From the IMG/VR virus record IMGVR_UViG_3300028412_000004, positions 61,532-125,531 of that record: a stretch of 64,000 bases of DNA; one strand, written 5' to 3'. The DNA comes from a virus. The notes beneath the pieces were generated by a model. The model ran no database searches. It was not told the origin of the DNA and saw nothing but the letters and a program-made list of their open reading frames with translations. The stretch's first letter is position 1. Every line of letters starts with the position of its first letter. The translations under genes were made by a program, and so were the position numbers. Positions 1,945 through 33,234 of this stretch are shown here, piece by piece.

Positions 1945-1991
1945 GTTACGCAACCGGTGATTTACACTAACAAAACAACACAGGACTAGTT

Positions 1992-2549: not shown

Positions 2550-2578
2550 GCTAGTGCTACAACACAAGGAATAACATT

Positions 2579-3526: not shown

Positions 3527-3549
3527 GCGATAGTCTAAAACCACATTCC

Positions 3550-3586
3550 AAAGGCCGCTCCTTCACCGGGGCGGCCTTTTCATTTT
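3550..3586 (+). terminator. Rho-independent terminator after the capsid gene
   Basis: AAAGGCCGCTCC-ttcacc-GGGGCGGCCTTT stem-loop followed by TCATTTT. Confidence 0.85.
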
Positions 3587-3627
3587 CACACTTGCTCTAG
3601 CGGCTATGTGAGTCGTATTATCTCCCT

Positions 3628-4638: not shown

Positions 4639-4639
4639 T

Positions 4640-6175: not shown

Positions 6176-6813
6176 GTGCTAGATTATCAGCTAAAGAATT
6201 TTTCGGAAACTGTGTCGATAAACCTTTGGATATGGTGATGCTTCGTCGTGTATTCCTTTTACACATGCGTATCCATTGGAGCGCTGGTGAAAACCACTAC
6301 CAGGATGATGCTGATTTTTCTTGCTTAGAATATTCCGACGACGCAACGAAGTCTAAGTTGGCTGTGGAACTCACCGACATTCTAAACGAGGATGACACCG
6401 ACAACTTCCCAGGAGTATTCGTCGGATTCAAAGGTGGCTACAAACTGCGTAAGAACATGCTCGACTACTCATCTAATTTGTCTGAGGATAATTCCAAGAC
6501 TTCTAAGAATGTTCAGTGGCGGGGAACATTGGCTATATCACACATACACAAATCCTCCGACACAGCCCTCGCGATGGCTGATTCTAGTTTCGTGTTTCTT
6601 ATGGCTGTGCGCGAGACGTTGATGGATCACTTCCCTATTGGTGTAATGGATTTCGAGGGTGTAACAGACCCGCAAAAATTGGATCCTAAGAAATCCAACA
6701 GCTTTTTCAAGGTTGACCTGTTGGTGAGCGTAGAGTTTACTGCAACCGTAAATATCAGCCTCGAAGGACACAGACTTAAAACCTATGGTATAGAGTTATC
6801 GCCAACCTCCTAA
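6172..6813 (+). CDS. Tail completion / terminator protein
   Basis: 213-aa ORF immediately before the sheath gene; call rests mainly on synteny. Confidence 0.5.
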   Translation: MSARLSAKEFFGNCVDKPLDMVMLRRVFLLHMRIHWSAGENHYQDDADFSCLEYSDDATKSKLAVELTDILNEDDTDNFPGVFVGFKGGYKLRKNMLDYSSNLSEDNSKTSKNVQWRGTLAISHIHKSSDTALAMADSSFVFLMAVRETLMDHFPIGVMDFEGVTDPQKLDPKKSNSFFKVDLLVSVEFTATVNISLEGHRLKTYGIELSPTS

Positions 6814-6855
6814 TCTTCACTTGACCAAACCAAACACCACATACATCCTAATATT

Positions 6856-17249: not shown

Positions 17250-18701
17250 ATGCCATACGTAGATGTCAGAAGACCAAATGCAGAGGTAAAGCTTCCAAGC
17301 GGTAAGGAGTTTGTCCCAGACAGTGTACGCATTGTGTATGCTGTCGACAGCTTCCCATACGCCACCGTGTCTATGCACGAGAAGCGGGGAGGGACCACTA
17401 GGGTTGACGATGTAAAATCGTCGGAGGCTGCTGGACCAGCGGGAGAATTGCAGAAAGTAATGTTTCAAGCTCGTTTTACGCCTGACGCCTCTTTGAGGCT
17501 CTTCGACGGGCACAGCGAGCTTGAGTTCGCAGGCTATGTGTCAGACCCTAGAGCAAACATGTCTCCCGGTAGTGTAGGTAATACGGTAACCATCGGGCAT
17601 GAGTCCTCGCTGATTAATGCGTTACGTTTGAGCTCCCTCCCAGAGATAAAGGGAGACTACCGCCTTAAGTTAGAAAGTGTTACGGGGGATCTCGCAGAAC
17701 GGTTCACCAAAGTAACAGATACCATCGTATCAAATTATGAGAGTGATCCAACCCAGTATTTAATAGAGCAATCCGGCGATAGTGGTGTTCTGTCTCAAAT
17801 ACACGAAACCAATAAGAAAATACTCCCGTTGTGGAAGACGCTACTAAAGAACAGTGTAGGGGGTGTAGGTTGGCCTGAGATCACAACACCCCCCACAACC
17901 GGTACGCAGTTGTCGCAGTTCAATCTAGGAGTTAACGATGCTATACGAAACACACTTAAACAAGGGACAGGTGGTTTTATGGGTACTATCCGAAGTCTCA
18001 CATCCGAGTTTCAACTAGCATTCGTACCTAGTAAATACGTGGGCTCTCTAGGAAAATTTATCAACTGGACGTCGATACTCGCAGAAGAATCTAATTTAGG
18101 ACCTTTAGATTTTACTCATGGTGAGTTCTCAGGAGGGTCACCCAGAATACTGCCAGTCTCTAATGTTATAGTATCCTTGACCGCAAATAGCTTCTACCGG
18201 GATTCGGTTGTGCCTTCTGTAGGCAAGGTTGCTAGTGTTAAAAACATAGCTATGTGGCCGGAAAAATTTCAGGGTGGTAACATCATTCCACTATCCGCCC
18301 CCAGGTGGTTTCCAACCATGCTAGACGTATCTAAGAACGACTTTCAGGAGCAGCCCAACCAAACTCTAGCGAACTACGAATCAAAGTTTAAAAAGGCGGT
18401 CGAACTTCGTAGCAAAATAGAGGATGAAGTTTATAGGGTTTTACTGCTGCGCTACGCCCGTAATTACTACAATTATGCTTCTCTGAGGGAATCGACTGCG
18501 AGTGTTACAATACCTATGGATCTCTCGATCGAGGTGGGTAAAAGATACGAGCTGAAGACCCAAGAAGGTGTCATAGGCAGCGGGTTCCTGCAAAGAGTCA
18601 CACACAACATGCATACTGGCGGTAATAACTCCAGCGCTGCTACAACTAGCTTGCTCTTCAGCCACGTAGAGTTTACTGGTTTTGAACTACCCGACAAATA
18701 A
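17250..18701 (+). CDS. Baseplate hub protein (gp27 / late control D-like)
   Basis: 483 aa ending in a hub-type beta-barrel (ASVTIPMDLSIEVGKRY...GFLQRVTHNM). Confidence 0.55.
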   Translation: MPYVDVRRPNAEVKLPSGKEFVPDSVRIVYAVDSFPYATVSMHEKRGGTTRVDDVKSSEAAGPAGELQKVMFQARFTPDASLRLFDGHSELEFAGYVSDPRANMSPGSVGNTVTIGHESSLINALRLSSLPEIKGDYRLKLESVTGDLAERFTKVTDTIVSNYESDPTQYLIEQSGDSGVLSQIHETNKKILPLWKTLLKNSVGGVGWPEITTPPTTGTQLSQFNLGVNDAIRNTLKQGTGGFMGTIRSLTSEFQLAFVPSKYVGSLGKFINWTSILAEESNLGPLDFTHGEFSGGSPRILPVSNVIVSLTANSFYRDSVVPSVGKVASVKNIAMWPEKFQGGNIIPLSAPRWFPTMLDVSKNDFQEQPNQTLANYESKFKKAVELRSKIEDEVYRVLLLRYARNYYNYASLRESTASVTIPMDLSIEVGKRYELKTQEGVIGSGFLQRVTHNMHTGGNNSSAATTSLLFSHVEFTGFELPDK

Positions 18702-18706
18702 ACTGT

Positions 18707-21700
18707 ATGGCCGATCGTGAAGATAGAGATAAGATACGCTCCGACGAGGACTGTGAAAAAGAATTCCAGCCCCCTGTGGATGATTTGTGTCTGCCGGCAG
18801 AGTCGGAACGCAGACCAGTTCCGTGTGAAGAATCTGACGAAGACTGTGTTGACGGCTTCAAGTTCCCCGAGGCTGTTATACCAGCAGAGCCTACCGACTT
18901 CGACACACCGGTCCCTCTCACACTTCGTAACATTGAGATCACACTGAATTGTCTCGAAGAGCTCAGCGATACAGTGGGAGTCTACCCCACCAACGTCGAC
19001 GACATCTTCTACTGGGAGACACTACCGGGAGTCAGTCCTGCACAGCTCACCTATATTGCTGCGTTGAGTCAGGCGGCTAGGAACAGTGTAATGGGGGCCA
19101 CCAATGCCACGATCGAAACCGCGCTGGACGTGTCCGCGGAGCAGGCAGAATATTTCAGCACTACATTCGATGCCGCTGTAGCGACCGCAGCTTCCAAAGG
19201 AGGTTACGGGACTTCGGTAACGACACCTGTCGGCTTGTTTACCGACAGCGTAGATTGGAGAACTATTCCTCGCATTACAGAATCTAAACTGGATTACATC
19301 AGCAAACTGCTTCCAGCTACGCAAGAGTCTGCTATCCTGATGTCGCCGACAGACTTGGAAGAGACTTTCAAACTCAGCACAACGCAAGCCACGTATTTCA
19401 GAGCATTTATAGATGCTAAGCTGAGTGACCTGAACGCTATAGCTTACGTGCAAACGGAGCTGAGTCTTCGCTGTTATTGGCAGAATGAGTTCCAAGATGC
19501 GGACTGCCCTGCTGCGAAATTAATAACTTCTCTAGGTGTCACTAGTTACGAGATAGTAGCAGGCGATTCTAGATTCCACTCATACAACAGCCAAGAGGAA
19601 GCGAACGCGCTGGCCTACACTGCCGCACTCGCCGAGCTAGAGTGTTGGTACGGTAACGATGCATTACAAGTAGACTGTGGTGACGAGGGGTTCCCAGACC
19701 TAGTTCCGGGTAATATTCACGTAGATAGTGTAGGAGGTGATATTGACAACACGGTGACGACATCAACCGGCCCAGGGCTGGATACCACAATACAGGTGGG
19801 CGTTGTTACAGTAGAAGCGCTCGACACAAGGTTCGCGTCACGTAGCGGCGCCGTCACAGCAACGGATGCAGCACGTGTTTACGCCATATCATTACTGGAA
19901 TGCCGCTATAGGAACGCATTAAGGTCGGCAACGTGTGCAGTCAATACAGGGCCTGACGAAGCCCCTATCACAATAGACCTTCAACCAGGGACGCCTTATG
20001 GTAATTTAGGACAAGTTGTAAACGTACTCCCGGACTACACTGTTTCTGAGATTTCTCAAATTGACGCTGACGGACTCGCGGCAACTCTGGCGGGGTCCCT
20101 CCTCGACTGCTACTACTCGAACCCCGAAGTAACTGCAACGTGTGGCAATATACCTATAGGTCCCGAGGAAGCGCCAGTTATATATATCCCAAACGAAACT
20201 GTTACTGTAGACAGGCACGGAGCGCTGGCCTACTCAAACACCATACCAGCCAACACAACCCGCTCATACATAAGTAAGCAAGAAGCAGAAGATCAGGCTG
20301 ACGCACTCGCAGCGGCGACTCTGTATTGCATGTATTGTTCTAAGGAGATAGATCCGCTTTGTGATAGCACCCCATCGTCACTCTCTTTAACTCTGGGTAT
20401 GGTAGAAGGTGCACTATGTGGCCCTGATCCAGCTTCTATACAAGAAGAAGCTAAAGCACTCGCACGCATTCCTGTAGTGGAGGGAGATCTATGTGAGTAC
20501 GGCAACGATGAAGTAGTTGGAGCGTGTGTTGCTGGCGCTGGTATAGATGCGTCGCGTTTCCCTGAAGGTACAGCAGGGGTGGCTACCGGAGTATACCCAC
20601 CTCTCGGGGAAACCGTCGTAATACCTGCTAACACTATAGTTGTAGCGGATGCAGCAATAAACGCAGCAGCAGCTAAGGCGAATGCGAACGCTCAGGCTGA
20701 AGCGCTCGCCCTAGCTGTAATGGATTGTTTCTACACAAATAACGATGTTACGCTCGAATGTGCTCAACCTGTCGTAAACGACAATTTCACACTACATACT
20801 AGTTCGGCAAAATATCCTGAAGGAGGTCCTGACGCCTCTCCTTTCGGAACCATATTTATTAAGAAAGACACCACCTTCTCCTACGTGAGCCAATCCGCCG
20901 CCCAAGATCAGGCAGCCGCTTTGGCGTTCAGTATGCAGGTGTGTTTATACGGGAATAATCAAGTGACGATTTACTGCGACACCCCTATAGACGAATACGG
21001 ACCAGGCTTCGACGACAGATCAAACATTGCCGGCAACGCCCCAACGCCTGTATTAGAGGATACAGTGGTTACTTTAGATGGTGTGCAATCCTACCAGCTG
21101 GCTAGTGTAATAGGGGCGGCGCGGTTAAAATGTTTATTTGAAAACGAGGTTGCATACACCCACACGTGTGGGAGTATGATTGGTAACAATATTGTATCAG
21201 TCGAGGTGGCCGGTTCTGCGGGCAAATACCCAGATAGCGAGTCGCCGGGTACAGTAAACGTAGCGGTAGGTACTGTACTTTCTTCTTTAAGTATAGCAGA
21301 CGCAGACGATCGTGCTGAGGTGTTAGGCCGATCTCATGTAAATTGTCAGTATACAAACCTAGCTTTCACGCTGGATTGTTTTGATACATACATGGGTGGA
21401 GATGGCAGCTCATACGACGCTACCGCTATGGCACCAGGGGCGAAAGGTACAGTAACCGTGGCGGCTGGCGCTGTTGTCGCTCCTACTATAGGCGGTGCGC
21501 AGGACGATACTGTATCTTTAGCAGCTTCACAGTTGCTATGTATTTACGTAGGTAAGGCGTCGGTGACGGGACGTTGTGATAGTAGTTCTGATATTGTTAT
21601 ACATGAGATAACTATACCACCAGGTATAATTTTATCCGCGGAAGGTGCCGACGACGCTGAAGCCCAAGCCCAAATCCTGGCGGACGCAATTACAATTTGC

Positions 21701-22168
21701 GGAGGTAGCAGCACCTCCACGAGCACCTCCACTGGCACCTCCACCGATCCTCCTCCGTCCGGTTCCAGTAAAGATACTGCGATTGTTTTAGCGCCGTGGT
21801 TGGGGGAGGGCGGCTACACAGCTCTCTTCGTGGAAGAGCAACCTGAGGTTGTATTCAGCGACCACTTCGATGCGAAGATAGAAAAAAGAGTTTCCAGGTT
21901 TAAACTAGACTCTAGATTTTTCGATGTTTGTGAAAGGAACACGGTGAAAGTGGTAGGTGTCGTACCTAATAGACCGGGAGTGGTTGGTGTTGAGGTGGAC
22001 CTTGAAACCAACGAACTTATTGTGCGCGTGGGATGGTTCTCCAGTATAACGCGAGTGACTGGTCGTATAGCTGGTGTGCGGAAAGGGTTTGACCGCCTAA
22101 GATTCCCAACTAAAACTAGGGAAGACTTCGAATTAAACGAAGATTGGCTTAACCGAGATAAAAGATAA
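18707..22168 (+). CDS. Cys-rich repetitive tail fibre or adhesin (DUF5977-like repeats) with a chaperone-like C-terminal domain
   Basis: About 11 modules bounded by C-x-Y-x-N...C, containing SQ(E/I)(E/D)A(N/D) elements. A Ser/Thr linker precedes a C-terminal domain (YTALFVEEQPEVVFSD...IAGVRKGFDRLRF). Confidence 0.6.
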   Translation: MADREDRDKIRSDEDCEKEFQPPVDDLCLPAESERRPVPCEESDEDCVDGFKFPEAVIPAEPTDFDTPVPLTLRNIEITLNCLEELSDTVGVYPTNVDDIFYWETLPGVSPAQLTYIAALSQAARNSVMGATNATIETALDVSAEQAEYFSTTFDAAVATAASKGGYGTSVTTPVGLFTDSVDWRTIPRITESKLDYISKLLPATQESAILMSPTDLEETFKLSTTQATYFRAFIDAKLSDLNAIAYVQTELSLRCYWQNEFQDADCPAAKLITSLGVTSYEIVAGDSRFHSYNSQEEANALAYTAALAELECWYGNDALQVDCGDEGFPDLVPGNIHVDSVGGDIDNTVTTSTGPGLDTTIQVGVVTVEALDTRFASRSGAVTATDAARVYAISLLECRYRNALRSATCAVNTGPDEAPITIDLQPGTPYGNLGQVVNVLPDYTVSEISQIDADGLAATLAGSLLDCYYSNPEVTATCGNIPIGPEEAPVIYIPNETVTVDRHGALAYSNTIPANTTRSYISKQEAEDQADALAAATLYCMYCSKEIDPLCDSTPSSLSLTLGMVEGALCGPDPASIQEEAKALARIPVVEGDLCEYGNDEVVGACVAGAGIDASRFPEGTAGVATGVYPPLGETVVIPANTIVVADAAINAAAAKANANAQAEALALAVMDCFYTNNDVTLECAQPVVNDNFTLHTSSAKYPEGGPDASPFGTIFIKKDTTFSYVSQSAAQDQAAALAFSMQVCLYGNNQVTIYCDTPIDEYGPGFDDRSNIAGNAPTPVLEDTVVTLDGVQSYQLASVIGAARLKCLFENEVAYTHTCGSMIGNNIVSVEVAGSAGKYPDSESPGTVNVAVGTVLSSLSIADADDRAEVLGRSHVNCQYTNLAFTLDCFDTYMGGDGSSYDATAMAPGAKGTVTVAAGAVVAPTIGGAQDDTVSLAASQLLCIYVGKASVTGRCDSSSDIVIHEITIPPGIILSAEGADDAEAQAQILADAITICGGSSTSTSTSTGTSTDPPPSGSSKDTAIVLAPWLGEGGYTALFVEEQPEVVFSDHFDAKIEKRVSRFKLDSRFFDVCERNTVKVVGVVPNRPGVVGVEVDLETNELIVRVGWFSSITRVTGRIAGVRKGFDRLRFPTKTREDFELNEDWLNRDKR

Positions 22169-22998
22169 TGCCTAGTTACTCATCACAGGGATCCTCTAAA
22201 AGCGGCAGTTCCAGCTCCAGTTCGAGCGGCAGTTCCAGCTCCAGTTCGAGCGGCAGTTCCAGTTCAAGTGGTAGCACTAGCTCAAGTGGTAGTGTTAGCG
22301 GCAGCGTGAGCGGCAGCGGCAGCGTGAGCGGCAGCGTGAGCGGCAGCGGCAGCGTGAGCGGCAGCGGCAGCGTGAGCGGCAGCGTGAGCGGCAGCGGCAG
22401 CGTGAGCGGCAGCGGCAGCGTGAGCGGCAGCGGCAGCGGCAGCGTTTCCGGATCTGGATCTGGTAGCGCAGAGTGTAGCTGTCTGGCACAAACCGACGTA
22501 TACACTGAAGGCGGTAATAATGGAGAAGGTTCTGGGGCCAGAAGCTACAGGACGGCTATTAGTGGTAGTTGGTCAAATCGTACGGGGAACGTGTTCAGCG
22601 ATACTGCAGCCGGTTATCAAGAAGTGTCAGTTAATTTTTCGGTGTGTGACGTAGAATCCGCGAGATTCTCTATAGTCATGGACCCGGACCTCCCCGGCCA
22701 GGTCGCTAGCATCACATGTTCGGTAAATGGTACAACACTCTCTGCCCTTGATCTATCTATAAACGGAGATGCGTACACAGCCACGCCGGCCACAGTGGAC
22801 ATAGATTTCAACTCCAGTCAAATAGATATCTTCTCTCCTAGACGTCTCTCCGTCTATTCCAGCGGCAGCGCTACGGATACAACTAATTTTATGAATAATG
22901 ACAGCTGTGCGGCTGCTATTGAAGTAACCGTAACCTGTAATAATGACGGCGGGTTTAACGCTTTAGTGTTAACGTATGAAGGAGTCACTACGTTATAG
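22168..22998 (+). CDS. Ser/Gly-repeat protein with a beta-sandwich C-terminal domain (putative fibre or surface protein)
   Basis: The first ~100 aa are almost only S, G and V; start overlaps the upstream stop (TAATG). Confidence 0.6.
   Translation: MPSYSSQGSSKSGSSSSSSSGSSSSSSSGSSSSSGSTSSSGSVSGSVSGSGSVSGSVSGSGSVSGSGSVSGSVSGSGSVSGSGSVSGSGSGSVSGSGSGSAECSCLAQTDVYTEGGNNGEGSGARSYRTAISGSWSNRTGNVFSDTAAGYQEVSVNFSVCDVESARFSIVMDPDLPGQVASITCSVNGTTLSALDLSINGDAYTATPATVDIDFNSSQIDIFSPRRLSVYSSGSATDTTNFMNNDSCAAAIEVTVTCNNDGGFNALVLTYEGVTTL
22201..22444 (+). repeat. In-frame tandem repeat array (two exact plus one diverged 24-nt unit, then AGCGGC/AGCGTG hexamer mosaic)
   Basis: AGCGGCAGTTCCAGCTCCAGTTCG at 22201 and 22225; hexamer array from about 22297 to 22444. 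Confidence 0.95.
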
Positions 22999-23020
22999 AT
23001 TTAAACTCGAATGTGTGATT

Positions 23021-24085
23021 ATGTTAAAAGACCATTTCAGCAAAACCGTTATATTAACTACCAAAGGTCGTGAGGATAGAGCAGAGCAAGCTCTGTCTAA
23101 GATGCGGCGGCAGGGGCTTATAGAGAGTCCTGACGACATTGAACTAGTCTACGGGATTATGGGTAGCGACCTACCGCCTCCAGCATGGTGGCGCGCCGGA
23201 GGCGGTGCGTGGGGTTGTCTTTCGTCACACATAAGAATACTGCAGGATGCTTGGCAGCTGGGCGTCCCTGAGATACTTATTTTAGAGGATGACGTATGCT
23301 GGGTGCCTGAAGCCTTAGATATCCTAGACAGCAGCATGCCCTACGCTCCGGATAACTGGGGACAAATGTACCTAGGAGGACAACACAGAAAAAGACCTCA
23401 AGTAGTGTCGGACTTTTGGCTGGCGGCGCAGAGTGTTAATAGAACGCACGCTTACGCTGTCAGCAGGAAGACTATACCGCGTATGTTACAGCACATCCAA
23501 TACGCCCCGGACTACATCAACAGCCCGTGGCCGAGGCATATTGATCACCAATTAGAGGTGGCACATCAACGCGGTGATTGGAACATCATAGCCCCAAACT
23601 ACTGGATTGCAGGACAAGATGAAAATCACTCTGCGATAAATGGACGGCACCATTTTAAACAGTGGTGGGACTGGTATGAGCCCTCTGCCCCGGGAGAATC
23701 TCCGTTTGTAGTCATCCCCAAGGACTTTAATTACGACCCTCACATAACTATGCTGCACGAGGGTTATGAAGAGGATCTTAAAGAAAAAGTTTCCAACAGC
23801 TTGCACCGAGCGGCGGTGTTTTTAGCTATGAAAACTGTGGCGCAGCAAGCGTGGGGTTTACGGAGGATGCCTGCTATACGCGTGGAAGACAAAGACATGC
23901 TGGCGGTGCGTGAAACTTGCTGGAGCTCTGGGATCGTTGATATAGAGGATATGACACAAAGTAAATTCCAAGAGTTCTTAAAACCAGATACTTTTAGATT
24001 CAAACCATTGTCTACTACCGCCCCAGAAGAGACGGATACCTCCGCAGAGGTTCCGGAACCAGCAGTGCTAGACGACAGATTGTAA
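23021..24085 (+). CDS. Glycosyltransferase, GT25-like
   Basis: GCLSSHIRI...ILILEDDV, WGQMYLGG, THAYAVS and IDHQL match family-25 motifs. ATG at 23021 is preferred over 22976. Confidence 0.8.
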   Translation: MLKDHFSKTVILTTKGREDRAEQALSKMRRQGLIESPDDIELVYGIMGSDLPPPAWWRAGGGAWGCLSSHIRILQDAWQLGVPEILILEDDVCWVPEALDILDSSMPYAPDNWGQMYLGGQHRKRPQVVSDFWLAAQSVNRTHAYAVSRKTIPRMLQHIQYAPDYINSPWPRHIDHQLEVAHQRGDWNIIAPNYWIAGQDENHSAINGRHHFKQWWDWYEPSAPGESPFVVIPKDFNYDPHITMLHEGYEEDLKEKVSNSLHRAAVFLAMKTVAQQAWGLRRMPAIRVEDKDMLAVRETCWSSGIVDIEDMTQSKFQEFLKPDTFRFKPLSTTAPEETDTSAEVPEPAVLDDRL

Positions 24086-24104
24086 AACCTTAAGCCTGAC
24101 AGAC

Positions 24105-26516
24105 ATGCCACTTAATTTTAAACCTTTAGAGTTGCAAAAAACTGATATCTTCATCGAAACCGGAACACATGTAGGAAACACTATAGCGAAGATAAAAGAC
24201 GACTACAGTGAGATACACACTGTGGAAATAGTGCCGGAGTGTTACGAAGCTGTAAGGAAGAAATATACAACTGACCCCCACATAAATTTTCACTTAGATG
24301 ATTCCCCAACAGGACTTACCAAAATACTAAAGAATGTAACAACACCAGTTACATTCTGGCTAGACGCGCATGTCCAAGATATGTCCCAGCCCGCCGGGAC
24401 AGGGGCTCCTTTATTGGAGGAGTTGGAAGTTATTAAAAATCACGTTGTGAAAACACACATGCTATTAATAGACGACGTGCGCCTTTTCAAAAAGTATGGG
24501 ACTACGGTGGAAAAGGTTAAGAGTAAAATACTGGAGATTAACAAAGACTACACATTCGAATTCGGTCGAGGTTACATTGCTAATGACGTGTTAATAGCAA
24601 GAGTAGGAGGTGCTAAAACCAAAGAGAACAATACCACAATGTTGAGTGAAGCTTTAAGAATATTAAAGGATACCGGTCACCCGACTCGCAGCGTTGTGCA
24701 TGTAGGCATGCATAACGCTACGGAAGTTGACGCCTACAAACGTGCCGGATTTTCGGATATTGTATACATAGAAGCTGACGAAGCACTTTGTGTCGCGCAG
24801 GCAGGGCGGAAAGATATAGAGGTCATCAACGCAGTGGTTAGCGACGTGGAAGGGGAGGTCTCGTTTTATAAAGCTTCGAACCGGGGTGTATCCTCGTCTA
24901 TTTTAAAACCAACCGCGCACCTGGATAACTTTCGTAATGTAAAGTTCGACGCCCCGGTAAAGCTCAGAGCAGAAACACTGGATCAGGCGCTTCAACGCTC
25001 CGGCAACTATAACGCGGATACAATAGACTTACTGGTATTAGACATCCAGGGAGCAGAGCTTCTCGCACTTAAATCATTTTCAGATCTACACAAGGTAGCT
25101 GTGGTGAAGGTAGACGTGCATACGAAAAGCTTCTACAAAGGCGCCACCACAATAAATTCGCTGTTAAATTTCTTCACCAAAAATAATTTCAGAATGGTTA
25201 AATATAGCAGATCTAAATACGGATCGGCTATATTTGTGAACTCCGCGCGACGGCAAGTGCGGGATTACACTTTTGCAGTGCCTGTTAACGAGCCCTACTA
25301 CGCCGGGTCGCACGGGGGCTTGATGGATCAAATCCTTGCAATGTTTGAGAATAGGTTGTACGCCGAGACAGCTCTGAACACTCGTGTAGCCTTTAGGGTG
25401 ACTGTCAACGACCACTGTCCAGGTTCTCTATTGGATTTCTTCGAGCCTATACCTCGTGTAACTTATTTCAACGATGAGGCGCCTTACAGTGAGCCCTTCG
25501 CACACAATAGGTCCCCCAGGTGGTTGTCTAGGTATCCCAACGCTAGTATAATTGCACGCACTCAAGATCTTAAAGTCAAACCTAAGATCGAACAACATGT
25601 TATAGACATACTGAACAACAACCCTAACCTACTAGCGGTACATGTCCGAAAAACAGATAGAGGCTGGCGACACCGCCTCTCACTAAATACAAAAGAAGTC
25701 TACAGAAGATGCGACGAGCATACCGGCCCTATATACTTAGCGACGTGCTCTCCCGCGATACAGCGTAGTATGGCGGAACGATACGGAGGGCGTCTCGTCA
25801 GTTTTGGTCCTGTCGAGAATAAAGGTGGTCGTAGGTGTACCAGCCTAGAACACGCGGTCGTAGACCTCGCCGTATGCTTAGAAGCGCCTGAATCGCTACC
25901 AGATCCTTGCAGCGGGTGGTGTTACTTTACAAGAGCATTCAGGGAGGCGGGCAACTCCCTTTTAAAGACTTCTAAAAGTCTGGCACTTAAAAAGGAGGTT
26001 AAGATAATTAGTTTCTATTCTGAGCCAGAGGAGTTCTCGACTTATTACACCAAGCACAGCCAGCGCTTCGTCGAAAATTGTCGTCAACTCGGGTTGGATT
26101 GTTTTGTAGAACACTTGGAGGGACACGGCGATTACTGTAAAAATACGCTTCTTAAACCTAAATTTATAAAAGAATGTTTATTGAAATTTAAAACGCCTGT
26201 TTTGTGGTTAGACGTAGACTCTACTCTAGAAACTAGACCTGACTTCAACAGCTTCAGAGATAGTGACTTTGCAGCCGTCAGACAGCGCAGTAAGTTGGGA
26301 CTGCATGCTTACTGTTTGTATTTTAACGATACGGCAAAGTCACACGAGATACTGGATAGGTGGATTGCTAAATGCGCTGCGTGCGAGGACCCGCTCACGG
26401 CAGATCACCAGCATCTGGCGTGGTCGGTAGAAAAGAAAGACATACACTTTATGAAAACAGCCCCAAAATTAGTGTTCTCACCTAAGTCCGAGATTGTAAG
26501 TAAGAAATGGACGTAA
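24105..26516 (+). CDS. Four-domain glycan-modifying enzyme: SAM methyltransferase + FkbM-type methyltransferase + O-fucosyltransferase/NodZ-like GT-B + GT-A transferase
   Basis: IFIETGT/FWLDAH/LIDDVRLF; VVHVG/SSSIL/IDLLVLDIQGAEL; AVHVRKTD/IYLAT/AVVDLAVC; KPKFIKECL..PVLWLDVD (DxD). Confidence 0.7.
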   Translation: MPLNFKPLELQKTDIFIETGTHVGNTIAKIKDDYSEIHTVEIVPECYEAVRKKYTTDPHINFHLDDSPTGLTKILKNVTTPVTFWLDAHVQDMSQPAGTGAPLLEELEVIKNHVVKTHMLLIDDVRLFKKYGTTVEKVKSKILEINKDYTFEFGRGYIANDVLIARVGGAKTKENNTTMLSEALRILKDTGHPTRSVVHVGMHNATEVDAYKRAGFSDIVYIEADEALCVAQAGRKDIEVINAVVSDVEGEVSFYKASNRGVSSSILKPTAHLDNFRNVKFDAPVKLRAETLDQALQRSGNYNADTIDLLVLDIQGAELLALKSFSDLHKVAVVKVDVHTKSFYKGATTINSLLNFFTKNNFRMVKYSRSKYGSAIFVNSARRQVRDYTFAVPVNEPYYAGSHGGLMDQILAMFENRLYAETALNTRVAFRVTVNDHCPGSLLDFFEPIPRVTYFNDEAPYSEPFAHNRSPRWLSRYPNASIIARTQDLKVKPKIEQHVIDILNNNPNLLAVHVRKTDRGWRHRLSLNTKEVYRRCDEHTGPIYLATCSPAIQRSMAERYGGRLVSFGPVENKGGRRCTSLEHAVVDLAVCLEAPESLPDPCSGWCYFTRAFREAGNSLLKTSKSLALKKEVKIISFYSEPEEFSTYYTKHSQRFVENCRQLGLDCFVEHLEGHGDYCKNTLLKPKFIKECLLKFKTPVLWLDVDSTLETRPDFNSFRDSDFAAVRQRSKLGLHAYCLYFNDTAKSHEILDRWIAKCAACEDPLTADHQHLAWSVEKKDIHFMKTAPKLVFSPKSEIVSKKWT

Positions 26517-26597
26517 TCAAAAATAATAATTGCTACCCTGAATGAATCAAGAGACTCTGTAGCATCTTCCCATTAAACCCACACTAGCGCTACTACA

Positions 26598-27959
26598 ATG
26601 CTGCACGCCGCTTTAAAAATATTCAAGGATACTGGACACCCGACTCGCAGCGTTGTGCATGTGGGTATGGGGCGTATGGACGAGTTATCACACTACAAAA
26701 AAACAGGATTCTCCAACGTCCTGTTCGTAGAAGCTGACGAAGTGCTTTGTGTCGCGCAGGCAGGTCGGAAAGATGTGGAAATCATCAACGCTGTAATCAG
26801 TGACGTTGCCGAAGAGGTCTCGTTTTATAGAGCTTCGAACCGGGGCCTGTCCTCATCTATCCTAAAGCCAGAAAAGCATATAAAACACTTCCCAGGTGTA
26901 AAGTTCGCCGCCCCGGTAAAGCTCAGAGCAGAAACACTGGATCAGGCGCTTCAACGCTCTAATAACTATAACTCGGATACCATAGACTTACTGGTATTAG
27001 ACATCCAGGGAGCAGAGCTTCTCGCGCTTAAATCATTTTCAGATCTGCACAAGGTAGCTGTGGTGCAGTTGGAAGTAAACTTTGTGGAGCTGTACAAGGG
27101 TGGCGCTAAAATGAACGAAACACTAGAATTCTTCTACAAAAACAATTTTAGACTGGTTAAATTCAATAGCACTAGGCATGGGTACGGGGATGCAATTTTT
27201 GTAAACTCCTCCAGGTGGCAGGTGGCGGATTACACTTTTGTGGTTCATACTGCTGAGCCTTTTTGTACACGTGTAGAGGGTGGTATGGTGGACCAACTAG
27301 GGCACATATTTAAAGGACGTCTATTTGCTGAGACAAGCGCAGGCGTCTATTTAGAGACTAGCTTAAGAAGCCTCCACACTCCCGGTCGCGGAGGTATCTT
27401 TGACTTCTTTGAGCCTATAGCTCGTGTAAATTTCAGCAAGCAGCCGAGGAAAGACGCGTGTATGTTTAAACAGCATGAGCCTTGGTGTAATGCGAAGAAT
27501 CACTGGAGCATAACAGCGCGCGCTGGGGATCTTAAAGTAAAACCTAAGATCGAACAACATGTTATAGCCATACTGAATAACAATCCGAACCTGTTAGCGG
27601 TACATGTCCGCAGGGGTGATAAAGGTTGGGAAAACCCGCTCGCGGTTTCTATGGAGGAAGTCCTTCACAGGTGCGACGCTCATGACGGTCCTATCTATCT
27701 CGCAACGGATACCCCCGAAGTCCAGCAAGACATGATACAACGTTACGGGGAAAGACTCATTTATTTCGACACCGTGCGCCCCTCGTCTTCGTGGAGGAAG
27801 ACAAGCCTAGAACACGCGGTTGTAGACCTCGCCGTATGTGTAGAAGCTCCCGAAGTGTTGCCAGACACGTGCAGTGGTTGGTATCACTTGATTACAGCTT
27901 TCAGAGAAGTAGGAGCTTCCCTGCTGCGTACTTCAAAAAAGCACACCCCAAGCGCGTGA
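26598..27959 (+). CDS. FkbM-type methyltransferase fused to a fucosyltransferase-like domain (paralog of the middle of the preceding gene)
   Basis: LVLDIQGAEL, EVNFVELYKG, GYGDAIF; AVHVRRGD, IYLATD, AVVDLAVC. Shares nucleotide-identical blocks with 24639-25975. Confidence 0.75.
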   Translation: MLHAALKIFKDTGHPTRSVVHVGMGRMDELSHYKKTGFSNVLFVEADEVLCVAQAGRKDVEIINAVISDVAEEVSFYRASNRGLSSSILKPEKHIKHFPGVKFAAPVKLRAETLDQALQRSNNYNSDTIDLLVLDIQGAELLALKSFSDLHKVAVVQLEVNFVELYKGGAKMNETLEFFYKNNFRLVKFNSTRHGYGDAIFVNSSRWQVADYTFVVHTAEPFCTRVEGGMVDQLGHIFKGRLFAETSAGVYLETSLRSLHTPGRGGIFDFFEPIARVNFSKQPRKDACMFKQHEPWCNAKNHWSITARAGDLKVKPKIEQHVIAILNNNPNLLAVHVRRGDKGWENPLAVSMEEVLHRCDAHDGPIYLATDTPEVQQDMIQRYGERLIYFDTVRPSSSWRKTSLEHAVVDLAVCVEAPEVLPDTCSGWYHLITAFREVGASLLRTSKKHTPSA

Positions 27960-27968
27960 ATAGAAACC

Positions 27969-28511
27969 ATGCATAAGAAACCTATGTCACCACAAACAGC
28001 TTGCAATAAGGCCAAGACCGCATTCCCGGAAGACCCTGACGAAGCTCTAGGTCCTATAGTCCGGATGCAGTGGCTCATGATCAAATCCCGCAGAAAAGGT
28101 CTAAGTGAGGAGGAGTTCCGGGAATACGTTGACATAGTGGACAAGAACTCCGAAGAGATATCGAAGTGGCACGAACGCTGGTTGTGCTCAGTGTTTGACA
28201 CCTACGCTGAGAATGGTGAAGCTGTTTTTCTCGTGTTTAGTGTGATGCGTATGATGGAAAAGATGGCGTGTCCGCGTAAGAGTATTTCTGATCAATTTGT
28301 ACGTTCCGTAAGTCTGAACAACATGGACATACACACAGCACTGGCGTATAGGATAAAAAAACTTCAGAAAGGGCACCCTTACATGTCTAAACTTACAACC
28401 AGTATGCTTAAACAAATCGAAGCAGATAAAGGATCTGTATTGGGCCGAGTTTCTCTTCTAAGGAAGCCTGGTGAGTCTGTTGTAGACGGTATGAATCGTA
28501 TACTAAAATGA
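27969..28511 (+). CDS. Hypothetical protein of the glycan cassette
   Basis: 180-aa helical ORF. Its RWLCSVFDTYAE segment recalls uncharacterised proteins of polysaccharide loci (recollection, not verified). Confidence 0.5.
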   Translation: MHKKPMSPQTACNKAKTAFPEDPDEALGPIVRMQWLMIKSRRKGLSEEEFREYVDIVDKNSEEISKWHERWLCSVFDTYAENGEAVFLVFSVMRMMEKMACPRKSISDQFVRSVSLNNMDIHTALAYRIKKLQKGHPYMSKLTTSMLKQIEADKGSVLGRVSLLRKPGESVVDGMNRILK

Positions 28512-29098
28512 TTGATCTGACTAGAAATTGGGTGTTCCTGCATCCTTCCAAGACGGGCGGCTCCTCTGTAGAAGTAGCTTTGATGGAAAGTGCCTTAAAC
28601 ACTGGATCTGAGGTGGAATCAGTCTTCGGTCCTCTTTTCGCGGTGTGGGGTCCCGATGGTAAGCAGCACTGGTCCTACGAGAAGATGGTATGCCATTTTC
28701 ACTTTACCGCACATTGGAAGAAGTTTGCGACAGTCCGCCACCCTTACACACGTGTGCTATCTGAGTTTCGCTATCAGCTCTCCGGTAACAGACGCAAGGA
28801 TGGTAACCAGGAGTGCTACGCCTCCGCTGATATTAACGCAGCTATAAAGTCTAAGACTTTGTGGCGCTGCGCGTGGCCCTGGCACGGTATGTCGCAATTT
28901 GCATACCTTAGCGACGACGTTGAGTTAATACGGTTCGAGAACCTTACGGAGGATTTTAAAAAAGTGACAGGGCTGGACAACCTCAAACATGTGCTGAAAT
29001 CGCCTGAGGTTGAGCTTGACGAGCTGGACGATGAGTCTAAATCTATCATTCAGAAGAAATTTCCTTTGGATTTTCTGAAACTAAACTACGATCCATAA
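28508..29098 (+). CDS. Sulfotransferase (Sulfotransfer_2-like)
   Basis: PAPS-binding motifs FLHPSKTGGSS (5'-PSB) and VRHPYTRVLSEF (3'-PB), plus IRFENL. Confidence 0.85.
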   Translation: MIDLTRNWVFLHPSKTGGSSVEVALMESALNTGSEVESVFGPLFAVWGPDGKQHWSYEKMVCHFHFTAHWKKFATVRHPYTRVLSEFRYQLSGNRRKDGNQECYASADINAAIKSKTLWRCAWPWHGMSQFAYLSDDVELIRFENLTEDFKKVTGLDNLKHVLKSPEVELDELDDESKSIIQKKFPLDFLKLNYDP

Positions 29099-29101
29099 TA
29101 T

Positions 29102-29482
29102 ATGCAGGAGAACGTCATATTATTTTTATCAGGGTTGATTTGTGTGGGCTGGGTGCTGGAGCTGTGGTTCAAGGACGCTCCGCCGACCTGGTTAATCAAG
29201 TCATTGGCTGTAGCAACATTTACGTCGAGGCAGACGCCGCAATACTCGAATGAGGATGAGTGGTTGATCTACGCCAATTTGAACCTGGGACTGCTCGGAG
29301 GGCTGCTTACTTGCAGACAATGCCTCAGCCAGCACGTGTCCTTCTGGGGCGCGCTATTCTTACAAGTGTTCCTGGATTCTGCGGACGTATACACACGGTG
29401 TGGGTTATTCTTAACCTGCGCGCTAGGTTGGCCTTATCTGTTAAACATCATGTCCAGTATATTAGAAAAAAATGAGTACTAG
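29102..29482 (+). CDS. Small membrane protein with CxxC (DUF1360-like)
   Basis: About three hydrophobic segments and a GLLTCRQCLSQHVSFW motif. Confidence 0.5.
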   Translation: MQENVILFLSGLICVGWVLELWFKDAPPTWLIKSLAVATFTSRQTPQYSNEDEWLIYANLNLGLLGGLLTCRQCLSQHVSFWGALFLQVFLDSADVYTRCGLFLTCALGWPYLLNIMSSILEKNEY

Positions 29483-29837
29483 AAACTTGCATCTGTTCCG
29501 TATGGTGGACGGTAAAAAAACACCAGTAATTATAACCGTGGACAAAGACATGATTATTCTGTCCGAGCGCGAAGACGGTGCGTCCAACCAAGGCATTATT
29601 ATGGGGGACCGGTTCGATGAGGAAGGTAATAAGATAGGGCTCGCGATACAGCCAGGGGAGTCGGAAGTTCTCAGATTCTTTACACCGGGATACAAATGTA
29701 CGACCGCGGGGTGTCAAAAGCTCCATGATGAGTATCAACGGAAAGTAGATACTGCTAAAGCCGCTAATTGTAAAAACTGCGAGTTAGGGGCCTTGATAAG
29801 AGAATACGCCCCTAGGGTGCGAGAGATCCTAAAGTAA
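29472..29837 (+). CDS. Hypothetical protein with Cx4C and CxxC
   Basis: 121-aa ORF with CTTAGC and CKNC near the C-terminus. Confidence 0.55.
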   Translation: MSTRNLHLFRMVDGKKTPVIITVDKDMIILSEREDGASNQGIIMGDRFDEEGNKIGLAIQPGESEVLRFFTPGYKCTTAGCQKLHDEYQRKVDTAKAANCKNCELGALIREYAPRVREILK

Positions 29838-30010
29838 TGGAATTACCTGGATTAGATGCGGATCTGCAGCGTAAGCTGGCTGTAGAGATCTCTAGACCCG
29901 GTTGCAGATCCTGCGCCAAGTCTAAAACTATCCGAAAGTATAAAAAAATCCAGGACGCTCGAAATGCATCCCCACAAAACAACCTTGATAAGAAGCGTAA
30001 TCACAGGTAG
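29837..30010 (+). CDS. 57-aa basic CxxC protein (not in the ORF track)
   Basis: ATG overlaps the upstream TAA. MELPGLDADLQRKLAVEISRPGCRSCAKSKTIRKY... fills the gap before the sigma gene. Confidence 0.55.
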   Translation: MELPGLDADLQRKLAVEISRPGCRSCAKSKTIRKYKKIQDARNASPQNNLDKKRNHR

Positions 30011-31091: not shown

Positions 31092-31493
31092 ATGAAAAAA
31101 AGTATCCGCATAGACTTTACAGGAAACGCTCCAAAGCTGGATTTCAACAGACCTGTGGAAGGTTTCGAAAACACCATTCAACGCGCACTGGTTAACATAG
31201 GCACGCATCGTAATGATCTAAACTTATTCGAGAATAAAGGCACAGATTTATTGCGGAGGGGTGTAGAGGGTTCCTTAATCTCCATCCAAGCTGCGCAACA
31301 CCAATCCAATTTCGCGGCTATTGAGACCTTGCTGTTCATGCGAGAGGAGGCTGCAAATACACTCGACGCAGGTGAGGGCCTGAGCAAAATAGGATTAGAA
31401 CCCGCCTCACCTCTAGAAAATGGGCGGTTGAACATAAACGCAATATTCACCTCTGACACAGGAGAGGTGGTTGGCGCTGCCGGCAACATATAA
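31092..31493 (+). CDS. Baseplate wedge subunit (gp25/gpW-like)
   Basis: 133 aa (IQRALVNIGT...KGTDL), directly before the baseplate J-like gene. Confidence 0.55.
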   Translation: MKKSIRIDFTGNAPKLDFNRPVEGFENTIQRALVNIGTHRNDLNLFENKGTDLLRRGVEGSLISIQAAQHQSNFAAIETLLFMREEAANTLDAGEGLSKIGLEPASPLENGRLNINAIFTSDTGEVVGAAGNI

Positions 31494-31494
31494 T

Positions 31495-33234
31495 ATGAAT
31501 TACCCAGACATCTTAGACATTTACTTCCCCGAAATCGGAGAGATTGATAAATCTCGGGTATTGGACACTCGTGCGCGTGTGGTTGCTTACCTAGCCCGCG
31601 GTTGGCCAGACGTGGACATGAGTCCTGGATCCGTCTTCGGAGATACCTACATAGACCCTGCGGCTTACCTCTTCGCAGCGCTGGAGACGGCTATGGGGCG
31701 TTACATGAGCGACCTAGACTTAGAGAACGTCGCACAAGGTATAATCTACAACTGCGACTTTGTAGAAAAATACTTGGGTAATTTTGTAGATTCCCACAAC
31801 CAATACTTAAAGGCCTCCGGAGTGGTGCGGCTTGTGTTTAACACAGATAAGGCCTACACGCTGGATCGCGGAATCCGTTTCAGGACGAGCGAAACGGACA
31901 TCACGAACAACTTCAGCATAAGGCTCCCTTTCCCGGGAGACTGTGAAATACTCCCTACGGATGGTGCGGTAGTCGTTGGAGAAAATTCACAAACTCTTAA
32001 GAAGGTAGGAGCGAACACTTTCGTCGTGGATGTGCCAGTCGTAGGCGACATGAACTCACCGCTACTGTCTGGAGCCTTACTAGCCACCAACCAACTTGTC
32101 CAGGAGTTGGTGTCTGTTACAGCTCTTTACGATTTCTTCGACGCATCCGAGGCCCTTTCTCTACGTGTATTGGCGCAGCGATCGCGACAGACATATTACT
32201 CTAAAGGACTGACAAGCAGAGGCAACGCCGCAAGCCTCATACGTAAAGAGTTCCCAGGCGTCACAGGCGTGTCACCTGTATTATCTGGGGATGATATTAT
32301 GCTGCGTACAGCTGCTAATTTATTCGGGGTATTCGACGGCGGTGTGGACCTCTACGTCAAATCACAAGGGTTCACTTTCAAAGAGACTGCTGTCATCAAA
32401 CTAATTTACTCTCCCTACGACGCGAGCGCTCCTGGTGTGGATGAAAGTTTCAAAGGGATATTGGAGCTGCCTGAGATACCGTATGTGGTAGACTCCGTCA
32501 AATGGGTCGGTGATACCAATGTAGCACTGTCCTACGATTTCATCATGTCTTCCTCCGACATTTCCAGAGCGCCTATGCTCTCTGCCGCATACTCTATGTT
32601 AGACAAGACCTACATTAACGTGCAGATGCCAACAGACATCGATGGTGATGTTATAACTACACAAGTCGATGGAGATGGTAAAGAATACGCCGAGTTTGAA
32701 ATAACTTACCGTGCGGATCCTCTGCTGAAAGGTATCGCTGCTTTTGTGCAGGGTCCTGATGTCGCGCCGGTTGGTGTAGATGTGCTGGTAAAAGGTTTTG
32801 TACCTATCGTCATAAGCAATATGACGGTCGTGTATAGAAAGGATGCGGGAAGGTCTTTCAACCGCAGAAAAGCTAGAGAAGAGATACTGGAGTATCTTCG
32901 AACATTGGCTTACCCAGATACTATCACACTGAGTAAGTTGGCAGACTCGATGTTCTACGCAGGAGCCGCTGATGTTAAAGACGTGCTTATCACGGCCGAG
33001 ATCCGGTGGTCCTTAGGAACTCGGGTCAGCAGTGTAGCGGTAACTGGTACAGATCTCATCGAGCAGGACACCGTGGTAGTACCACCGCAGGCTATAACTA
33101 CCTTGTCCGGGTTGAAGGCTACTCAAATAGACCCTGATCTAGGATTTGCTACAGAAAGCTTTAAAGCGGGTAGTGTTAGAAACTTCTGCTACGTTATAGA
33201 TCCTGAAAACATTAACTTCAGTGAAGAACTTTAA
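31495..33234 (+). CDS. Baseplate J / gp6-like wedge protein
   Basis: DMSPGSVFGD, ASGVVRLVF, GGVDLYVK and a C-terminal gpJ-like region; ATG at 31495. Confidence 0.7.
   Translation: MNYPDILDIYFPEIGEIDKSRVLDTRARVVAYLARGWPDVDMSPGSVFGDTYIDPAAYLFAALETAMGRYMSDLDLENVAQGIIYNCDFVEKYLGNFVDSHNQYLKASGVVRLVFNTDKAYTLDRGIRFRTSETDITNNFSIRLPFPGDCEILPTDGAVVVGENSQTLKKVGANTFVVDVPVVGDMNSPLLSGALLATNQLVQELVSVTALYDFFDASEALSLRVLAQRSRQTYYSKGLTSRGNAASLIRKEFPGVTGVSPVLSGDDIMLRTAANLFGVFDGGVDLYVKSQGFTFKETAVIKLIYSPYDASAPGVDESFKGILELPEIPYVVDSVKWVGDTNVALSYDFIMSSSDISRAPMLSAAYSMLDKTYINVQMPTDIDGDVITTQVDGDGKEYAEFEITYRADPLLKGIAAFVQGPDVAPVGVDVLVKGFVPIVISNMTVVYRKDAGRSFNRRKAREEILEYLRTLAYPDTITLSKLADSMFYAGAADVKDVLITAEIRWSLGTRVSSVAVTGTDLIEQDTVVVPPQAITTLSGLKATQIDPDLGFATESFKAGSVRNFCYVIDPENINFSEEL

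Follow-up and report, generated by a model that had tools for sequence, protein, structure and literature searches.

Organization of the locus

The 64-kb stretch analysed here (hereafter the window; positions 61,532 to 125,531 of IMGVR_UViG_3300028412_000004) is the right-hand part of a linear 125.5-kb IMG/VR virus record, from an uncultured lake phage, with a CheckV completeness of 66%. It contains, flanked by baseplate genes, a cassette of seven co-directional, tightly packed genes (P0001–P0007; 18707–29098), all on the + strand, which encode a fibre-like protein, a Ser/Gly protein, a GT25-like glycosyltransferase and further candidate glycan-modifying enzymes. An earlier reading of the same DNA (hereafter the original prediction) had proposed that the cassette builds a methylated, sulfated glycan on the phage's own fibres. 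The three genes at its head are as follows.

P0001, 18707–22168, + strand: fibre-like protein of 1153 amino acids (aa) with an acidic N-terminus, stalk repeats, a Ser/Thr (S/T) linker and a C-terminal end domain
P0001 S/T linker, about aa 999–1021, nucleotides (nt) 21701–21769, + strand: putative O-glycan acceptor
P0001 C-terminal end domain, about 21773–22165 (~130 aa), + strand: beta-sandwich, as modelled
P0002, 22168–22998, + strand: 276 aa, an N-terminal Ser/Gly/Val tract and a 174-aa C-terminal domain
P0002 Ser/Gly/Val tract, nt 22168–22473 (first 102 residues), + strand: putative main acceptor
P0003, 23021–24085, + strand: GT25-like glycosyltransferase, 354 aa from M16; putative initiating polypeptide O-glycosyltransferase

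Neighbouring genes of the cassette overlap by up to 4 nt or are separated by up to 81 nt, the widest gap lying directly before P0005; the stop of P0001 and the start of P0002 overlap within TAATG, and the start of P0007 overlaps the stop of P0006. Judged from this spacing, the genes are predicted to be translationally coupled or near-coupled. None of the seven products has a membrane segment or signal peptide (maximal 19-residue hydropathy, 0.7–1.6). Upstream, the gene at 9483–11969 has weak VgrG-type matches in PHROG and Pfam. Scans of 20 flanking window proteins against these two databases gave almost no matches, and none for the downstream genes themselves; the orthologues of 31471–33234 in two related viral contigs (L072 and L058, see below) match phrog_6, baseplate wedge (3e-6 and 4.5e-4), and the L058 orthologue of 31092–31493 matches phrog_43 (0.002). 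These results indirectly support a position of the fibre gene and the cassette inside a baseplate block, as given in the original prediction, and the co-directional, tightly spaced arrangement described there is confirmed. Profiles of the gp25-like and J-like window genes found no solved relative. Scans for sigma-70 promoters and terminators remained at chance level, the sigma-70 model being uninformative for a phage with its own polymerase.

Direct searches with single sequences returned little. Among 50,697 GenBank phage records, no match was obtained by megablast of 18000–30000 or by tblastn with P0003, the end domain of the fibre or the baseplate neighbour, and single-protein scans of viral contigs were likewise without a match. 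The baseplate neighbour protein matched only itself in a set of 5.8 billion proteins, and PDB sequence searches with P0001, P0003, P0004 and P0007 singly were empty or at chance level. Identical copies of two record proteins are carried by a 161,295-base contig in the protein collection, indicating that a longer version of the phage exists.

Putative acceptor proteins

The stalk of P0001 consists of 11 repeats of ~60–70 residues each (about nt 19409–21577), in which a helix is followed, at the end of the repeat, by the motif C-x-[YFW]-x-N-x6-C; the protein holds 31 cysteines in all. The repeats match DUF5977 above the Pfam cut-off (29.4 versus 25 bits; 1.2e-6), a domain that one survey counts as a stalk component of bacterial fibrillar adhesins (PMC8286594). 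The S/T linker that the original prediction had placed in this fibre is indeed present at about aa 999–1021, and its DNA is a 12-nt tandem repeat (21710–21744).

The part of P0001 that is conserved across the viral loci carrying a GT25-like gene (sampled as described below) is confined to the C-terminal ~150 residues, found in 32 of 80 loci, where this end domain always stands directly after a Ser tract and 0.1–2.7 kb upstream of the transferase. An AlphaFold (AF2) model of the end domain gave a beta-sandwich with a terminal helix (predicted local distance difference test (pLDDT) score, 75; core, >90). Foldseek with this model found no match at E<=1e-3, and Pfam found none for the isolated domain. 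An exhaustive structural aligner returned H-type lectins and tailspike or pyocin-fibre tip domains in its top rows, at Z scores of 5–6.6 that correspond to the background level; no lectin or receptor-binding fold is therefore claimed, the best Z of 6.6 being within background.

P0002 begins with the Ser/Gly/Val tract. Residues 1–102 comprise 59 Ser, 25 Gly and 10 Val, encoded by DNA tandem repeats of period 24/30, and correspond to the protein with about 100 Ser/Gly residues noted in the original prediction. The 174-aa C-terminal domain has no relative in 320 loci or in Pfam. Positional orthologues of P0002 starting with an M(P)SYGSSKSSGS-type Ser/Gly tract occur between the fibre and the transferase in the related contigs L001, L072 and L058. 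The counterpart in L072 (7193–9853) is far larger, with 886 aa, 26% Ser, 23% Gly and 29 cysteines, so that the size of the Ser/Gly protein varies greatly among relatives.

The GT25-like enzyme P0003

The longest open reading frame (ORF) of P0003 starts at 22976 and overlaps P0002; since hundreds of homologues align from residue 16, the start is probably at 23021, 22 nt past the P0002 stop. As originally predicted, P0003 belongs with GT25: it scores above the cut-off for Glyco_transf_25 (PF01755; 29.7 versus 24 bits, E 7.3e-7, 44 residues matched) and also matches phrog_854. Its family comprises 1957 representatives at E<=1e-3, and E89-D90-D91, an acidic motif of GT-A type (DxD-like), is invariant across 30 aligned homologues. 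The family profile matched solved GT25 proteins at 2e-14 to 2e-4, with human procollagen galactosyltransferase 1 (COLGALT1; 2e-14) and mimivirus R655 (9.5e-13) on top. R655 is a proposed collagen glycosyltransferase (PMC9546862), and the two proteins together indicate that protein-directed GT25 enzymes exist.

Association of the GT25-like gene with Ser-rich ORFs

The 30-sequence alignment of the P0003 family led to 244 IMG/VR contigs, 80 of which were analysed with 10-kb flanks for Ser-rich ORFs, that is, ORFs of at least 100 aa that are not nested in a longer ORF and have at least 45% Ser in some 40-residue window. Such an ORF was present in 63 of the 80 GT25-anchored contigs. On the strand of the GT25-like gene, 56 Ser-rich ORFs ended in the 1 kb just upstream of it and 10 in the next kb, and all other 1-kb bins, to 10 kb on either side, held 0–2. 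The pairing persisted after dereplication of the transferases, in 15 of 17 clusters at 50% identity and in 22 of 32 at 70%. By the same criterion, control loci taken from the same collection were positive in 4 of 79 cases when anchored on FkbM methyltransferases (1.3 Mb) and in 6 of 80 when anchored on sulfotransferases (1.2 Mb), and three of these six also carry a GT25-like gene. Fisher tests of the GT25-anchored loci against these controls gave p values of 3e-23 (FkbM) and 3e-21 (sulfotransferase), which overstate the number of events because the viral loci are not phylogenetically independent. Thus, the co-occurrence of Ser-repeat genes with such cassettes across phage genomes, proposed as a check of the original prediction, was found for the GT25-like gene.

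When the Ser tracts were masked, the 68 upstream Ser-rich ORFs fell into 24 families without detectable mutual similarity, which argues that the GT25-like enzyme follows the tract and not one particular protein. Moreover, no real ORF of the entire 125.5-kb record other than P0001 and P0002 contains an S/T-rich tract, so that their arrangement beside P0003 is more than chance. Given the position of the tracts, the control frequencies and the recurrence across unrelated carrier proteins, we consider it likely that the GT25-like enzyme uses the neighbouring Ser tracts as acceptors.

A different substrate for the same enzymes is conceivable. They could remodel lipopolysaccharide (LPS), capsule or S-layer glycan of the host at the cytoplasmic face, for superinfection exclusion or to reduce sticking of progeny to debris, in which case the adjacency to the fibre would stem from the shared receptor and the Ser tracts would be plain flexible linkers. 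Judged by Pfam names, LPS, O-antigen and Nod-factor pathways typically employ enzymes of the GT25, GT11/GT23-like, FkbM and sulfotransferase families, lipid-linked intermediates are accessible to soluble enzymes, and related methyltransferases are accessory genes in cyanophages. We nevertheless regard this explanation as distinctly unlikely, since it does not account for a GT25-like gene behind the Ser tracts of 24 unrelated proteins against a background of 5–8%. Membrane proteins of any kind are also missing from the cassette, as are a flippase, a polymerase and a priming transferase, and in the 66%-complete record there is neither a GT2 match nor an integrase-linked Gtr-type conversion module. 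In the original prediction, a system acting on virion proteins had been preferred to one acting on the host surface; this preference is upheld by the Ser-tract pairing against the control frequency and by the absence of membrane segments, at the level of genes and not of chemistry.

The enzymes might also protect the phage from restriction by hypermodifying its DNA bases or a nucleotide-linked metabolite, DNA glucosylation being the best-known role of phage glycosyltransferases (summarised in PMC12619734). None of the cassette families is used for DNA glycosylation, however, no base-hydroxymethylase or similar gene is present in the cassette, and the genes lie in the baseplate/fibre block rather than among replication genes. 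This explanation, which would leave the Ser-tract association unaccounted for, was rejected on gene content and location as very improbable.

Enzymes encoded downstream of P0003

P0003 is followed by four genes, the first of which encodes a four-module enzyme.

P0004, 24105–26516, + strand: 803 aa, four-module enzyme
P0004 N-terminal Methyltransf_24-like domain, 24105–24629 (first 175 residues), + strand: with cyanophage and stand-alone phage homologues
P0004 FkbM methyltransferase, about 24687–25211 (aa 195–369), + strand: PF05050, 38.7 bits (cut-off, 22.7)
P0004 fucosyltransferase-superfamily domain with HVRKTD, 25260–25979 (aa 386–625), + strand: assigned by family profile and a low-confidence fold search
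P0004 possible GT-A domain with WLDVDS, 25980–26513 (aa 626–803), + strand: suggested by language-model neighbours and a conserved motif
P0005, 26598–27959, + strand: 453 aa, FkbM domain (aa 18–191; PF05050, 40.4 bits, cut-off 22.7) and fucosyltransferase-superfamily domain (aa 206–453, HVRRGD)
P0006, 27969–28511, + strand: soluble orphan of 180 aa
P0007, 28508–29098, + strand: 196-aa sulfotransferase of the type dependent on 3'-phosphoadenosine 5'-phosphosulfate (PAPS)

P0005 and the central part of P0004 are paralogous, with 60% identity (26598–27959 versus 24642–26000), which points to a tandem duplication inside the cassette with fusion of two extra modules onto one copy. In other phage contigs, each of the four P0004 modules is a separate gene. 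The FkbM domains of both proteins contain SSS and DIQGAE motifs that are invariant in the alignment of P0005 homologues, and the full-length homologues P0011, P0018 and P0023 from the protein collection carry PF05050 together with PF01531 (GT11).

In the domains that follow FkbM, the H, R and D of the motif HxR(R/K)xD are invariant and the later (A/S)(S/T)D motif is present. A profile of P0005 homologues and both window copies, built on an alignment that includes canonical GT11-type sequences, matched FUT8 (1e-8), POFUT2 (7e-5) and NodZ (5e-3). A profile restricted to the phage-type sequences aligned with the GT11-type copies in hhalign at 81% probability around the HxR(R/K)xD motif, and a stand-alone phage homologue in the contig L257 reached 3.6e-5 against O-FucT, a match below the cut-off. 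Residues 386–803 of P0004 were modelled with AlphaFold from five sequences, of which none is a canonical fucosyltransferase, at a mean pLDDT of 59; in Foldseek, all 40 matches listed for this low-confidence model were FUT8, POFUT1, POFUT2 or NodZ (best E 3e-4, probability 1.00). We have accordingly filed these domains as divergent members of the fucosyltransferase superfamily (GT11/GT23/GT65/GT68). The two methyltransferase/fucosyltransferase-like fusions of the original prediction thus stand with a difference between their halves: the FkbM half scores above the Pfam cut-off, and the fucosyltransferase half is suggested by profile comparison and by the low-confidence fold model and not by Pfam directly.

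The two outer modules of P0004, when isolated, gave no Pfam match. The N-terminal domain shows 30% identity (1e-13) to cyanophage "methyltransferases" in tblastn against the GenBank phages, the only matches of P0004 there, and has 11 stand-alone phage homologues of ~170 aa, of which the one in L250 matches Methyltransf_24 at 7e-4. This module represents a widespread stand-alone ~170-aa phage family (L164 9473–9985, L240 10584–11102, L250 14553–15080 and others) without a Pfam family of its own, whose genes often adjoin FkbM methyltransferase genes. The last 178 residues of P0004 have two homologues, and W-x-DVD is common to all three sequences. Their language-model neighbours (0.95–0.97) are Nucleotid_trans/GT34 clusters in which 11–82% of the members carry that annotation, and the low-confidence model shows alternating strands and helices. 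The GT-A domain of the original prediction therefore keeps its conserved motif and its neighbours, lacks a Pfam match and is at present only a lead. The extra N-terminal methyltransferase-like domain of P0004 and the orphan P0006 had escaped the first reading; P0006 has no family or relative in Pfam, PHROG or the viral loci searched.

P0007, correctly recognized at the outset as a PAPS-dependent sulfotransferase, matches Sulfotransfer_2 (PF03567) above the cut-off (24.4 versus 22 bits) as well as phrog_3347. It contains the motifs PSKTGGSS and RHPYTRVLSEF, within which K15, G18, R77, P79 and S85 are invariant in four homologues; we take the PSKTGG-type and RxP...S motifs to be the binding motifs for the 5'-phosphosulfate and 3'-phosphate of the cofactor. 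The product of the first gene past the sulfotransferase (29102–29482) has a strongly hydrophobic segment at its N-terminus (19-residue hydropathy, 2.2); no other protein of membrane type is encoded close to the cassette.

Syntenic viral relatives

The contigs L001 (50 kb), L072 (200 kb) and L058/L060 are syntenic with the window phage. They have the same flanks, namely two upstream genes of 148 and 483 aa and, downstream, a sigma factor gene and the wedge genes, and they likewise carry a GT25-like gene and a fibre with Cys repeats. The genes behind the GT25-like gene are as follows.

Window phage: P0004, P0005, P0006 and the sulfotransferase P0007
L001: a second GT25-like gene; a sulfotransferase fused to a Caps_synth/GT32 domain
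L072: a GT2; an orthologous sulfotransferase (6e-43); a pyruvyl-transferase/Methyltransf_24 protein
L058: a longer glycosyltransferase fusion; a 202-aa protein

The picture that emerges from these comparisons is that of a conserved core, consisting of the fibre, the Ser/Gly protein and the GT25-like enzyme, followed by a variable decoration slot. Such variation is also what the remodelling of the host envelope would lead one to expect, O-antigen clusters differing in the same manner.

It may further be asked whether the whole cassette serves one glycan. The GT25-like enzyme could glycosylate the Ser tracts while P0004–P0007 form a separately acquired island at a permissive site, acting on another substrate such as host polysaccharide, a small molecule or another phage protein. 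No syntenic relative has P0004–P0006, whose modules each stand alone in unrelated phage contexts, the FkbM and sulfotransferase families are not enriched beside Ser-rich ORFs, and the widest gap of the cassette, 81 nt, precedes P0005. Yet every syntenic relative has a second transferase and a decorating enzyme exactly behind the GT25-like gene, and this recurrence at the same position suggests a single slot for glycan building whose content varies. In L001 and L072, a sulfotransferase is among the genes of that slot, the one in L072 being the clear orthologue listed above and the one in L001 a weaker homologue, with none in any other syntenic relative. Since, in addition, the genes run in one direction with short gaps and with no terminator or promoter signal above chance, we judge such a division of function to be unlikely.

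Cellular homologues and probable host

In a set of bacteria and archaea with one genome per species, the GT25-like family was found almost only in Verrucomicrobiota and Planctomycetota. An upstream Ser-rich ORF was present in 21 of 80 bacterial loci, and in several of them proteins of 1666–1967 aa with Ser/Gly/Pro-rich starts lie directly downstream (L086 7330–13026, L091 7057–12957, L139 7774–12771). The pairing is thus not peculiar to phage fibres, and that of the GT25-like gene with giant Ser-rich proteins may be the cellular counterpart of the phage module. An activity on host LPS or capsule would not explain why the same pairing occurs beside giant Ser-rich proteins in bacterial chromosomes.

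In a quick FastTree of the GT25-like catalytic domains with midpoint rooting, P0003 groups with the L001 enzyme (support 0.98). Of the 60 tips in the clade around this pair, 54 are viral; this clade is in turn nested in a larger one of 93 tips, 37 of them from bacterial assemblies. Among the genes of such assemblies, the closest GT25-like one, with 47% identity, is that of L081, a 35.8-kb contig of a Verrucomicrobiales metagenome-assembled genome (MAG), in which 1834–7011 encodes a 1208-aa fibre homologue, a Ser-rich ORF and the GT25-like enzyme. L081 looks like a phage contig binned into the MAG, or a prophage, and some other loci labelled bacterial are probably also phage contigs binned with a genome. 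The near confinement of the cellular homologues to Verrucomicrobiota and Planctomycetota provides a host lead, and the hosts are probably bacteria of the Planctomycetes–Verrucomicrobia–Chlamydiae (PVC) group living in lakes.

Proposed pathway

We propose that the module carries out a late, cytoplasmic O-glycosylation of the phage's own appendage proteins. P0003, a GT-A-type enzyme with the E-D-D motif and presumably a UDP-hexose donor, would place the first sugar on Ser/Thr hydroxyls of disordered tracts, which would be the hinge before the P0001 end domain and the 102-residue tract of P0002. P0004 and P0005, which together would provide three S-adenosylmethionine (SAM)-dependent methyltransferase domains, fucosyltransferase-superfamily domains with a presumed GDP-deoxyhexose donor and possibly the GT-A domain of P0004, would then extend and cap the glycan, and P0007 would add sulfate from host PAPS. 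The distal fibre would thereby receive a mucin-like coat, acidic and partly methylated, which might stiffen and protect the linker and alter what the fibre sticks to. No phage-encoded genes for the supply of GDP-sugars or PAPS were found in the 66%-complete record, so that donor sugars, SAM and PAPS would come from the host or from functions encoded in the missing third of the genome. We infer the order of the steps, the donors, the acceptor, the sharing of one glycan by the accessory enzymes and the virion location of both proteins.

Several points weigh against this pathway. The best-known bacterial GT25 members act on lipooligosaccharide and not on protein. P0001 and P0002 are taken as virion components from their position and shape only, and the putative glycan on them is deduced from comparative genomics, not from chemistry or expression. 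In the fucosyltransferase-like domains the usual first motif GRFGNQ is replaced by GG(L/M)(M/V)DQ (GGxxDQ), and no direct Pfam match was obtained for these domains, whether P0004 and P0005 were searched whole or as isolated domains. P0004, P0005 and P0006 have no counterpart in any relative found and are specific to the window phage, and the case for their acting on the same glycan, drawn from adjacency and from analogous, non-orthologous enzymes in the relatives, is weak. Among phages, neither the FkbM nor the sulfotransferase family as a whole shows a link to Ser-rich ORFs (the 4 of 79 and 6 of 80 control loci above), and the non-independence of the viral loci inflates the number of events that the Fisher p values seem to report. 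As for the methylated, sulfated glycan of the original prediction, the enzyme genes are present as described; its placement on the fibres is qualified by the missing link of these two families to Ser tracts, by the restriction of P0004–P0006 to this phage and by the occurrence of the sulfotransferase in L001 and L072 only. Taking these points together, we hold the full chain, in which one and the same glycan on virion-borne proteins is methylated, extended in a fucosyl-like manner and sulfated, to be moderately probable.

More speculatively, Verrucomicrobiota and Planctomycetota and their phages might share a poly-Ser O-glycosylation in which a GT25-like initiator reads disordered Ser tracts on any carrier and a swapped decoration slot (fucosyl-like, methyl and sulfate here; pyruvate, GT2 and GT32 in relatives) then diversifies the glycan in the manner of an O-antigen locus. 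Receptor-binding fibres would thereby acquire strain-specific, sulfated, mucin-like coats, possibly mimicking the giant Ser-rich surface proteins of the hosts; we offer this as a tentative extension that the present data make possible rather than probable. If the proposed pathway is true, virion glycosylation would be a widespread trait of uncultured aquatic phages and not an oddity of mycobacteriophages, given the 244 IMG/VR contigs that carry the GT25-like family, and it would have its own acceptor logic in the poly-Ser tracts and further chemistry, sulfation for example. A sugar coat on the fibres would have consequences for the recognition of hosts, for the stickiness of the particles and their stability in water, and for the reading of fibre sequences. 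The analysis also offers a simple rule for prediction, namely to look for Ser tracts with a GT25-like gene immediately behind them; since the cellular homologues are restricted to PVC bacteria, a host can also be suggested for a phage group without a cultured member.

Comparison with known systems

Full-text literature searches returned no description of poly-Ser tracts combined with GT25-like genes and sulfotransferases in phages. The cassette can be compared with several characterized systems, each sharing part of its features.

With respect to the enzyme family, COLGALT1 (also GLT25D1) and mimivirus R655 (PDB 9evj, 8zgc, 9crz; PMC9546862) are GT25 proteins with a known or proposed action on a repetitive structural protein, R655 being encoded by a virus as P0003 is. 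Their acceptor is collagen hydroxylysine and not Ser/Thr, no collagen or lysyl hydroxylase is found here, and the identity is low, with the match lying mainly around the E-D-D region.

With respect to the acceptor, the gene for a Ser-rich or repeat protein adjoins dedicated cytoplasmic glycosyltransferases in the Gram-positive Fap1/GspB systems with GtfA/GtfB, and likewise in the systems of the autotransporter heptosyltransferases, TibC-TibA and Aah-AIDA-I. As proposed for P0001 and P0002, the acceptor in these Ser-rich repeat glycoprotein and autotransporter systems is modified before assembly of the surface fibre, a likeness of architecture only. These systems differ in that they use GT4/GT8 or BAHT enzymes and SecA2/Y2 or autotransporter export and are cellular rather than viral.

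With respect to the decoration, the rhizobial Nod factor is modified by the fucosyltransferase NodZ, the FkbM-type 2-O-methyltransferase NoeI and the sulfotransferase NoeE. P0004, P0005 and P0007 would unite the same trio of GT23-type fucosyl transfer, FkbM-type O-methylation and PAPS-dependent sulfation, and NodZ is among the profile and structure matches, a likeness at the level of families. The Nod-factor acceptor is a lipo-chitooligosaccharide, unlike a protein tract, and its genes are separate and not fused. From the Gtr-type or Wzx/Wzy conversion of O-antigen and LPS by phages, the cassette is set apart by the lack of a membrane flippase, a bactoprenol-linked transferase and a polymerase among P0001–P0007 (record 66% complete).

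The original prediction had looked to giant eukaryotic viruses for a precedent; that comparison overlooked a closer one, the virion glycosylation of mycobacteriophages (Che8/Corndog/Myrna type). There, phage transferases attach glycans to the C-terminal ends of the virion's capsid and tail-tube subunits (Freeman et al. 2023, Cell Host Microbe 31:1216, as summarised in PMC12619734). In both cases soluble phage glycosyltransferases are encoded in or next to structural genes, here between VgrG-like and baseplate-wedge genes, and they act there, and would act here, on the phage's virion proteins within the cytoplasm. Some of the glycosylating mycobacteriophages also encode a methyltransferase. The present cassette differs in its putative acceptors, which are poly-Ser/Gly tracts in the fibre and in a separate protein (the only S/T tracts of the record) instead of capsid and tail-tube C-termini, in its GT25-like initiator and in the addition of sulfotransferase and fucosyltransferase-like domains; its hosts are probably lake PVC bacteria and not actinobacteria, and it is for the mycobacteriophages that the chemistry has been shown. 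Collectively, by analogy, the cassette is best rated as a variant of mycobacteriophage virion glycosylation that differs in the acceptor, the initiating enzyme family and the sulfotransferase.

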